Assembly (NCBI RefSeq): GCF_000372725.1
Contig: NW_005201381.1
Span: forward strand, 369,953 to 430,828
Source: Emiliania huxleyi CCMP1516
Lineage: Eukaryota
Direction of reading: 5' to 3'
DNA length: 60,876 nucleotides
Shown here: one piece after another, positions 49,825-52,800 of the stretch
Position numbering within the stretch: position 1 is the first letter of the stretch
Layout: every line of letters starts with the position of its first letter
The notes under the pieces: model-generated
Database searches by the model: none
Told to the model about the DNA's origin: nothing
What the model saw: the letters and a program-made list of their open reading frames with translations, nothing else
Made by a program: the position numbers and the translations under genes

Positions 49825-52800
49825 TCAGCCGCGCCGCTTGGAGAGGCGCCACGCGTTGGGGTCGTTGAAGCGGTCGTACAGCGGCTCGATGCGCTCGTTG
49901 CGCTTCCGCTTGGAGAGGTGGCGCGGGTCGGCCTGCTGGTAGTAGCGCGGCGCGAGCTCGGTGAGCCACTTTGGCTCGATGGCCATGCACTCGCGCATGT
50001 ACTCCTTGGAGGTGAGGACGAGCTCATGGTAGATGCACCTAAGCAAGCAGTCAGCCAAGTAAGTGAGGGATTCGTTCAATGAGGGCAGGATCGTGGTAGA
50101 GGCACCTAAATGATACACGAATGAATGAATGATCTCATTCTTGGAGGAGGGGAGGGCCGCGGCAGACGCACCACTCGGGGTTGCGGTTGAAGAGCGCGGA
50201 GGAGGGGTGGATGTACACGACCTGGCCCTCGTCCATCGTCTTGTACCCCTCCTGCGGGTCCTTCTTGGCCGCGTGCGTGAAGTAGCCCGACGTGATCGCC
50301 TTGCGCACCTTTGTGAAGTTGCGGCCGCACGTCTCGATCTCCAGCTTGTACCGGTCCATGATGGTGAGCAGCTGCTTGCGCACGTCCTGCGCCTTGCGCA
50401 TGTTTCGCGCCTGGATGAAGTTCTCGAAGCACCACGGGTTTGAGAACTTGGCCGCCGCCCAGCCTTGGTAGACGGCGAGCAGCGTGATGTGGTCGCCCTC
50501 CGCCTGGAAGAGCGCCACCCCTCAGTCAATCAACGAGTGCGTGAACGAGCTACCTAACCAGCCCTCCGCCTGGAAGAACTTGGAGCGCTTCTGGTCCGCC
50601 TGCGCCTGCTTCTCCTTCGGGCGGTACCAGATGTTTTGGACGGAGAGCATCGCAACCACCGTGAGCACCTCGTCGGAGCAGCCCAGCTCGACCGAGGCGA
50701 TCAAGATCTTGGACATCGGAGGCTCGAGCGGGAACTCGGCCATGCGGCGGCCGAGGCGCGTGAGCAGCCCCTCCTCGTCGAGGGCAGAGAGCGCGTACAG
50801 CGCCTCCATCGCCGCGACGAGCGTCTGCACGGGCGGCGCGTCCATAAAGTCGAAGTGGAGCAGGTCGTTGACGCCCATCGCCTTCATCTGCAGCACGGTG
50901 TTGCCCAGGTTCGTGCGCTGGATCTCCGGCACGTTGGTGGGCAGCATCTCGTTCTTGTACGCCTGCTCGGCAGCGAGGACGTATGATTGGTGTAACCGGC
51001 TACTTCCCCGTGGGTTCGGGTACCGTGGGGGTAGGGGAGGGTTGGTTCGGGTACCATGGAGTAGGGGAACGCCTGCTCGGTGTAGAGGCGGATGAGCTTC
51101 CCGAGGGAGATATGGGGAGATACGGGGAGATATGGGGAGGTCGCCTGCTCGGTGTACAGGCGGTAGCACTTGCCCGGACCGGTGCGGCCGGCGCGCCTAC
51201 AGACGGTATTGTGCAGCGTGTTGAGAGCACCGCGTGAAGACAACAGAGAGGAGGACAGTGAATACAGCGGAATACAGCGGAATACAGCGGAGTGCAGCGG
51301 AATGCAGCGGAGTACGTGCCCTCTCGAGCGCTGGTTGGGAGACATGAATGCGTGGGTGCGGCCGGCGCGCCCCGACCGCTGCCGCGCCGACGCCTGCGAG
51401 ATCGGCACCACCACCAGCGAGTCCATGCCGACCTTTGCGTTGTACACCTTCTGCTTGACGAAGCCTAGAGGGCGGGTTCGGGCCCCGTGGGGTAGGGGAA
51501 GGTGGGTTCGGGTACCGTGGGGTAGGGGAGGGTGGGCTCACCGGGGTCGACGACGTAGAAGATGCCGTCGATCGTGAGGGATGCCTCGGCGATGTTTGTC
51601 GCGATGACCCCCTTGCGCGAGCCGGGCGGCGCGGCCTCGAAGATGCGCCTAGGAGCAGACGCATGCCGCGTTGTAGTTCTTCTTTGGGGGGGGGGGGGGG
51701 GGTGCCGCCGCGCGTAGAAATAGAGACATCAGGCAGCAGGGATGATGGGCATATCTGGGCTATATCTCGGCTCGATCTCGGCTCTATCTCGGCTCCATCT
51801 CGCGTCTGCTGCTCGGACGGGAGCGCAGAGTAGACGGGCAGGATGATGAGCTCCGGCAGCGACGGGCCGAGCGACTTCATCCGCTCAAAGAGGATCTGGC
51901 AGGCGGTGTCGATCTCCTCCTGCCCCGTGAGGAAGAGGAGGACGTCGCCGGGCGGCTCCTGCAGGTGGATCTGCATCACCGTGATGAGGGCCGCGTCCAT
52001 GTAGTCCGCCTCGGGCGCCTGCAGGGAGGGTCCAGGAACGGTCTAGGAAGAGTCTAGGAAAGGCCGCGTCCATGTAGTCCGCCTCGGGCGCCTGCATGCA
52101 GGTATGCAGGTGTGCACAAGGGTCGAGGGAGGGCTCTGCAGGCTCGCGCGAGGAGATATGAGGGAGGTACGAGGGAGGTACGAGGGAGATATGAGGGAGG
52201 TACGAGGGAGATATGAGGGAGGTACGAGGGAGGTACGAGGGAGGTACGACGTAGAAATGAGGGGAGATATGAGGGAGGTACGAGGGAGGGACGAGGGAGG
52301 GACGAGGGAGAGATGGCGCCTTTGTGTAGAGGACCTCGACCGGGAAGGTGCGGCCTACAGGAAGGTTCCAGGAACGGTCTAGGAGCAGTCTAGGAACGAG
52401 CACCGCGACCGGGGAGGTGCGGCCGGGGATGGTGAAGATCGGGCACTCGAAGAAGTAGGACGAGTACTTCTCCGCGTCGAGGGTCGCCTACAGGGAGGCT
52501 CCAGGAGCGGTCTAGGAACAGTCTAGGAACGAGCACGCCTCCGCGTCGAGGGCCGCCGAAGTGCAGATGAGCTTGAGGTCCTTGCGGCGGGCGAGCAGGC
52601 CCTTGAGCAGGCCGAAGAGGACGTCGGTGTGAATCGTGCGCTCGTGCGCCTGGTCGAGCATGATGGGCGAGTTGATTACTTGTGGTTAGTTAATCAACTT
52701 GTTCATTCATTCACTCGTGCGCCTCGTCCAGCACGATGAGCTAATTGACACACTGATTAACTAGCTAGCAGTTAATTCATCTGTTGAGTAGCGCCTCGTC

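Follow-up and report, generated by a model that had tools for sequence, protein, structure and literature searches.

The origin of new spliceosomal introns is a still-open question. Among the closest described systems are introners, which the accessible sections of Gozashti et al. 2022 (PMC9860276) describe as accompanied by 3-9-bp duplications, some of them carrying the 3′ splice site and co-opting the 5′ site, with Symbiodinium microadriaticum as a case; membership there requires similarity to begin within ten intronic bases at both ends, and Table 5 of the same paper gives 79 elements as initially recovered in Emiliania huxleyi CCMP1516. The part of the 2025 follow-up cited here, Dataset S7 (PMC12130899), holds three families in this strain, one of which has five members of about 70 nt annotated as 'co-opt 5', carry 3'', with '10bp terminal direct repeats' and the mechanism given as 'Unknown'. 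In the sections cited, a review (PMC3443670) distinguishes tandem genomic duplication from intron transposition as a route, with cases from Oikopleura and Mycosphaerella, and work on non-LTR elements (PMC9977147) describes variable, sometimes long duplications (126 bp for R9; also Dualen). No account of the exon-copy and core layout described below emerged for E. huxleyi from a literature search whose coverage excluded most subscription papers, and the available sections of PMC8557442 and PMC10288648 hold no match to it.

Here we describe three units, A, B and C, in consecutive introns of a PRP22/DHX8 spliceosomal DEAH helicase gene of E. huxleyi CCMP1516, each pairing a copy of the next exon's start with a recurrent core that ends at the acceptor. 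The evidence leans towards reading them as three members of a dispersed intron family, likely copied and pasted into exons at staggered nicks. Since neither an intron-less allele nor an enzyme was found, intron gain and its mechanism are what we infer from the units as they stand.

The gene lies on the minus strand of the window (the whole stretch analysed, 60,876 nt of contig NW_005201381.1), where the part downstream of a gap of Ns spans 49824..57616 (-) and was modelled with 21 introns; its start falls before the gap, near 57780. Exon 52885-53112 (-) is 100% identical to protein P0007, which NCBI names E. huxleyi CCMP1516 RNA helicase, and is also close to many DHX8/PRP22 proteins. The model reads as a single open frame of 1077 aa, identical to P0007 at 739/740 residues and to P0022 at 858/1056 aligned residues. 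Thirteen introns were taken from joints in RNA contigs and two (intron A and intron 15) from one joint spanning both, and the remaining six were read from the sequence and scored against homologs. The donor is GC in 13 of the 21 introns, GT in 6 and GA in 2; two GA-AG introns lie at 55754-55820 and 55456-55696 (-), the first beginning with a perfect 25-nt exon copy. Homology and the gene model place the gene on the minus strand, so that the plus-strand sequence quoted in the initial annotation is antisense and every core ends at an acceptor AG.

Intron B, the 13th (52488..52556, -; 69 nt, GC-AG, phase 0), opens with a 27-nt copy (52530..52556, -) of the start of the next exon (52461..52487, -; the motif III region, SATLDAEKY), identical at 23/27 positions and giving the GC donor, and closes with the 42-nt core B (52488..52529, -), which ends at the acceptor AG. 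Intron A, the 14th (52355..52423, -; 69 nt, GC-AG, phase 1), is built in the same way, from a 27-nt copy (52397..52423, -; 23/27 identical, again giving the GC donor) of an exon start at 52328..52354 (-), within a 35-nt exon, followed by the 42-nt core A (52355..52396, -). Intron 15 (52019..52319, -; 301 nt, GC-AG) holds a different 11-nt repeat (52152-52310), then an inner AG|GC at 52092/52091 and unit C (52019-52091, 73 nt), which consists of a perfect 30-nt copy (52062..52091, -; 30/30) of the next exon's start (51989..52018, -), one base and the 42-nt core C (52019..52060, -), itself ending at the acceptor AG. Three neighbouring introns had been proposed to share one core; they do, with the qualification that the third copy is the last 73 nt of the 301-nt intron at 52019-52319. 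An exon duplication had also been noted beside each copy and is real for A, B and C, but the key feature, underweighted at that stage, is that this long duplication of the target exon supplies the donor. The mismatches in the upstream exon copies fall at first or second codon positions in 7/8 cases, and the downstream copies retain the conserved protein.

RNA contigs skip introns B, A and 15 in 4/4 runs, from four studies. For intron B the RNA joint is 52484->52554 in 4/4 runs; for intron A the contigs lack core A, with a joint 52020->52398 and exon letters between in 4/4 runs. For A and B, the RNA contigs and the open frame show that splicing restores the coding sequence exactly. The exon copy of unit C is perfect, and RNA contigs thus cannot separate one-step from two-step removal of intron 15. 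Intron A (52355-52423, -) has no in-frame stop in its 69 nt, so that retention would add 23 in-frame residues; stops are encountered if intron B is retained. RNA contigs also pile up, with mixed loose ends, on intronic 10-11-nt repeats at 53052-53322 and 50884-51154, which suggests that such repeats are common in transcripts of other loci. The 2013 Nature paper on the E. huxleyi genome reportedly remarks on 10-11-nt repeats in introns.

Outside the window, one exact-match scan of metagenome contigs, with a search pattern that omitted the core's first 12 nt, gave seven loci (L001 to L007); as a single exact-match scan, it yields a small sample biased towards the consensus, drawn from metagenome contigs rather than from the window's own assembly. 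L001 (49% GC, with neither an acceptor nor an exon copy) was dropped as a chance match, and L007 is an allele of the PRP22 locus that covers A and B only, both of them present. The remaining five loci lie in four other genes, L002 and L004 being one gene and counted once, and all five have the full core, the acceptor AG and a non-core part of 25-31 nt copied from their own downstream exon. Core and layout therefore occur at 7/7 distinct sites (A, B, C and the four other genes), with 25-31 nt of non-core sequence and a total length of 67-73 nt, and at 7/7 the core is 42 nt long with the same AG 3′ end. The donor is GC in L003 and L004 and GA in L005 and L006. The host genes encode a DUF6938 protein, a lactonase, an RFC5-like protein and a protein without a Pfam match; in the DUF6938 gene (L004) the profile runs from 76 to 78 across the intron, leaving the domain continuous. 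Profile matches show the sense orientation for three of these genes, and for L005 the layout points to it. Core identity between genes (PRP22 and the four others) is 35-41/42.

In each of four DNA runs in which the locus of the window is present, 5-6 contigs match core A through the acceptor and two further bases and then continue into unlike sequence, and three DNA-run contigs contain core-spacer-core units of 74, 70 and 71 nt. Core scans of viral contigs and of prokaryote genomes gave no matches. Two of the outside loci hold further introns of interest: an exon-copy intron with a different core in L004 (2374-2451, +; 39 + 39 nt), and a second intron in L003 (540-468, -) with yet another core and a 16-nt exon copy within 73 nt.

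The 45/49 identity reported for 52355-52403 against 52488-52536 is reproduced exactly, and the copy at 52019 matches these two stretches at 37/42 and 38/42. The family core is nevertheless 42 nt, ending exactly at the acceptor AG, rather than the 49 nt first proposed: the seven extra nucleotides common to A and B belong in both cases to the exon copy (matching the respective exon at 6/7 and 5/7 positions) and differ in allele L007, and we therefore ascribe them to chance or conversion. The core is composed of four degenerate 11-mers. A degenerate 30-nt pattern matches the 60.9-kb window at the three copies and nowhere else, and finds no match in any of 100 shuffles; all three copies are on one strand, and the rest of the window has no further copy. 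Its other features include an ankyrin-repeat ORF (17920-18747, +), a 133-nt inverted pair (10897-11029 and 26030-26162) that is 95% complementary at a distance of 15 kb, and a dispersed 43-nt repeat family (24202, 25072, 41641 and others). What is shared is, as had been suggested, the 3′ portion of an intron with its acceptor, and no terminal inverted repeat (TIR) bounds it: no inverted repeat of at least 6 nt is present at the core ends. Folding of the core as RNA gave no stable or conserved structure (z -1.4 to +1.2), and an Rfam search with it returned 0 matches.

The likeness among cores goes beyond a shared 11-nt satellite. Against the L004 core, the window cores score 37-39/42 and the pure arrays of related 11-mers 32 and 29/42; over the last 20 nt of that core, the arrays reach 14/20 and the window cores 17-20/20. 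Because the cores outscore the pure arrays, the satellite does not explain their similarity, and a plain intronic minisatellite, in which the repeat unit alone would account for the likeness, does not describe them.

The exon-copy layout extends across PRP22. Twelve of the 21 introns start by repeating the exon that follows, in an anchored match scoring at least 8, compared with 0/420 mismatched control pairs; unit C is a further, internal case, and two exon-copy scans whose filters miss some known units are left out of these counts. Several different cores use the same layout within the gene, and outside it intron 31343-31594 of an ATP-dependent DNA ligase gene combines that layout with another core; this gene (about 29300-34300, +) was identified by Pfam matches and is ligase IV-like by reading. 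The 11-nt repeat said to fill introns 53113-53291 and 56839-57012 does have related arrays there, which occupy only part of each intron: a pure array of 7.4 copies in the former, intron 11 (53204..53284, -), and 13 copies in the latter, intron 1 (56861..57003, -). On either side of the intron 11 array lies a directly repeated stretch of about 21-26 nt that spans the donor (53184-53307, -); the array looks like sequence inserted, with a long duplication, into a junction already present. The layout also appears amplified in tandem, in an array of 24.5 copies of a 72-nt unit (53329..55084, -) that joins a 29-nt exon copy to a 43-nt AT-rich core of another family; every junction reads AG|GT, and the 1722-nt intron holding the array could, on the prediction from its sequence, be removed stepwise. 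Shorter tandem exon-plus-core arrays of period 71-72 occur in introns 5 and 12 (55980-56188 and 52650-52866, -), with apparently more units in intron 12 of L007.

No allele without the introns was seen: none of the contigs from four DNA runs skips A, B or C (rare variants are lost in contigs), and L007, which covers A and B only, has both. A joint 52020->52601 in DNA runs was considered as an intron-loss allele and rejected, as one side is only 20 letters long and its contig differs at 9/56 letters (X3, X9); the contig behind it is likely a paralogous helicase.

In the mechanism that we propose, nicks staggered by about 25-31 nt would open an exon, and insertion between them would leave exon copy, core and exon in that order, the outer copies forming a target-site duplication. 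The first copy of the exon start would give the donor (GC in A, B, L003 and L004; GA in L005 and L006) and the core would give the AG, and only insertions at G|G(C/T/A) sites would survive, presumably because the duplicate must supply a donor. The template would likely come from the 3′ end of a family intron already in place, a step that has less behind it than the duplication itself. The PRP22 cluster would be accounted for if the template lay in a nearby intron or if neighbouring introns were later converted, and the tandem exon-plus-core arrays if the two exon copies recombined unequally. As to the nature of the template, we tentatively favour RNA, with target-primed reverse transcription from the AG 3′ end, over DNA-templated repair; the precise AG end at 7/7 sites, the long and variable duplications, the several unrelated cores and the local clustering all fit this route. 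A duplication of variable length (25-31 nt) joined to a precise 3′ end is what non-LTR or SINE-type elements would leave, and it is found at all seven sites, but the core lacks a poly(A) tail and is 42 nt at every site found. Retrotransposition of the non-LTR type usually gives variable 5′ truncation. The missing tail and the near-constant core length therefore count against an RNA template. No reverse transcriptase was detected in 58 long ORFs of the window, nor in 13 ORFs around an RNase H match, which comes from an ORF with an RNase H domain at 45130-46068 (-).

Several other processes could have produced parts of this pattern. The initial annotation had the 3′ half of an intron copied locally into new sites, and something of this may hold. 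The three cores occupy consecutive introns (chance 0.014 for 3 of 21, judged post hoc), all have a T at position 10 of the core against a C in the four outside genes, and are grouped to one side of a branch when the 42-nt cores are placed in a tree (support 67/97, with no starred branch anywhere). Comparing introns pairwise, 15/210 pairs exceed the shuffled maximum by more than 4, compared with 3/210 in a reverse-complement control at the same cut. Seven of these 15 similar pairs lie within two ranks of each other (permutation p 0.009), with a mean rank distance that is not significant (p 0.09). Further PRP22 pairs share other cores, namely introns 17/19 (51465-51541/50963-51144, -), 7/18 (55456-55696/51197-51370, -), 15/19 and 5/6. 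Against the local account, four unrelated genes pair this core with this layout and four DNA runs supply additional contigs bearing the core, and the trio differ from each other (mean 4.3 of 42) about as much as from the outside copies (4.75), which differ among themselves by 1.7. As the sole process, local copying is already refuted and we give it almost no weight; local copying or conversion added to dispersal is plausible but weak. The same clustering also speaks for DNA repair, in which an exon broken at staggered positions on its two strands would be mended by synthesis templated on the 3′ end of another, often nearby, intron, with no RNA step. Daphnia neointrons offer a precedent in the cited part of PMC4202315, with end repeats from staggered breaks, and at C, L005 and L006 there are 5-6 nt of microhomology on the acceptor side. 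Yet the Daphnia repeats are 4-12 bp against 25-31 nt here, fillers should vary in length and ends where the core is 42 nt with one 3′ end at 7/7 sites, A, B, L003 and L004 share only a single junction G, and the clustering fades when measured as mean rank distance; we consider repair possible but rather unlikely.

A dedicated short non-autonomous element (SINE-like, Penelope-like or of another class) that carries an acceptor and relies on an autonomous partner making 25-31-nt duplications would explain the fixed core length and the close likeness of the outside copies. The summed contig depth on core A, 61-112x that of the flank in four DNA runs, agrees with such an element, while being no measure of copy number, as do known introners that bring their own 3′ site and recruit the 5′ site from duplicated sequence (PMC9860276, sections cited). 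The difficulty is that unrelated cores share the layout within one gene, so that many separate elements would be needed; with no TIR, stable fold or Rfam match, and no partner found in the window, we regard this as improbable. Slightly harder still to credit is the remodelling of old introns, with exon starts tandemly duplicated into existing introns and their 3′ ends homogenized by conversion or satellite turnover. Unit C and the intron 11 array are located at splice junctions already present, a position equally consistent with remodelling and with gain; the 11-mers of the core have relatives in pure arrays of this gene, the seven extra bases of A and B that differ in L007 suggest conversion, and the four DNA runs show no absence allele. 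Remodelling would nonetheless have to arrive, in five unrelated genes, at one 42-nt register and a total length that hardly varies, and the pure arrays fall short of the cores over the last 20 nt. Copy-and-paste insertion at staggered nicks thus remains our preferred reading. Its broadest form, in which the 3′ tail of any spliced intron, rather than a single element, can be pasted at exon nicks about 25-31 nt apart, is a conjecture that we consider possible but rather unlikely.

If such a general pasting process is true, a large share of E. huxleyi introns would be young, their donors would come from GC-rich coding DNA, explaining both the GC majority and the GA donors, and introns could expand into exon-plus-core arrays or vanish precisely by recombination. 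GC donors, which make up 56-65% in E. huxleyi and are ascribed to high genomic GC in the part of PMC4028052 consulted, would gain a concrete and testable source in donors borrowed from duplicated coding sequence. Published introner screens demand similarity at both intron ends and so would filter out introns that are half host and half family; intron gain in E. huxleyi, a bloom-forming alga, may be far commoner than the few listed families indicate.

The inserts of Daphnia neointrons are said to lack a homologous source. In the cited part of PMC4202315, neointrons of Daphnia pulex resemble the present units in that the far end of the new intron repeats, in direct orientation, bases of the adjoining exon; those repeats are 4-12 bp, and here they are 25-31 nt and accompany a recurring family core. 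From the routes in the review as cited (PMC3443670), the units take an exon-derived donor, as in tandem duplication, and an intron-derived copy at a new site, as in transposition, and combine the two in one intron whose 5′ part comes from the exon and whose 3′ part resembles an intron. Transposition by reverse splicing predicts a whole intron and no duplication, unlike these units, and the Rogers tandem-duplication model does not describe them, as the match to the exon stops after 25-31 nt and the rest is family core. With the non-LTR elements of PMC9977147, in the sections cited, they share variable long duplications around an insert with a precise end; here no coding element, tail or partner was found, and the insert is 42 nt with near-constant length.

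The closest likeness is to introners. As described in the sections of PMC9860276 cited above, introners and the present units alike have sequence common to introns of unrelated genes, a carried acceptor, a donor from duplicated host sequence and an exactly restored mRNA. The shared sequence is present in at least four introns of non-paralogous genes, with the outside copies taken from metagenome contigs, and the introns are spliced for A, B and intron 15, with domain continuity in L004 as the corresponding observation outside PRP22. Measured by the two-ended rule, similarity reaches the 3′ end but at the 5′ end starts only after 25-31 locus-specific bases. Compared with the introners in those sections, the duplication is 25-31 nt rather than 3-9 bp and TIRs are lacking; roughly the first 40% of each intron is specific to its locus, 11-mers make up the core, and tandem exon-plus-core arrays occur. 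The traits of MITE or TIR DNA-transposon introners are likewise absent, the duplication being variable rather than fixed at 3-9 bp, and the initial suggestion that these introns are unlike TIR-bearing introners stands. The five-member E. huxleyi family of Dataset S7 (PMC12130899) is alike in species, similar length, splice-site logic and terminal direct repeat, and differs, going by its description, in having GT donors only and a 10-bp repeat; it may be the present family or a sister of it. The units thus work like introners and fall outside the two-ended definition, and we class them as intron-generating insertions with unusually long duplications.
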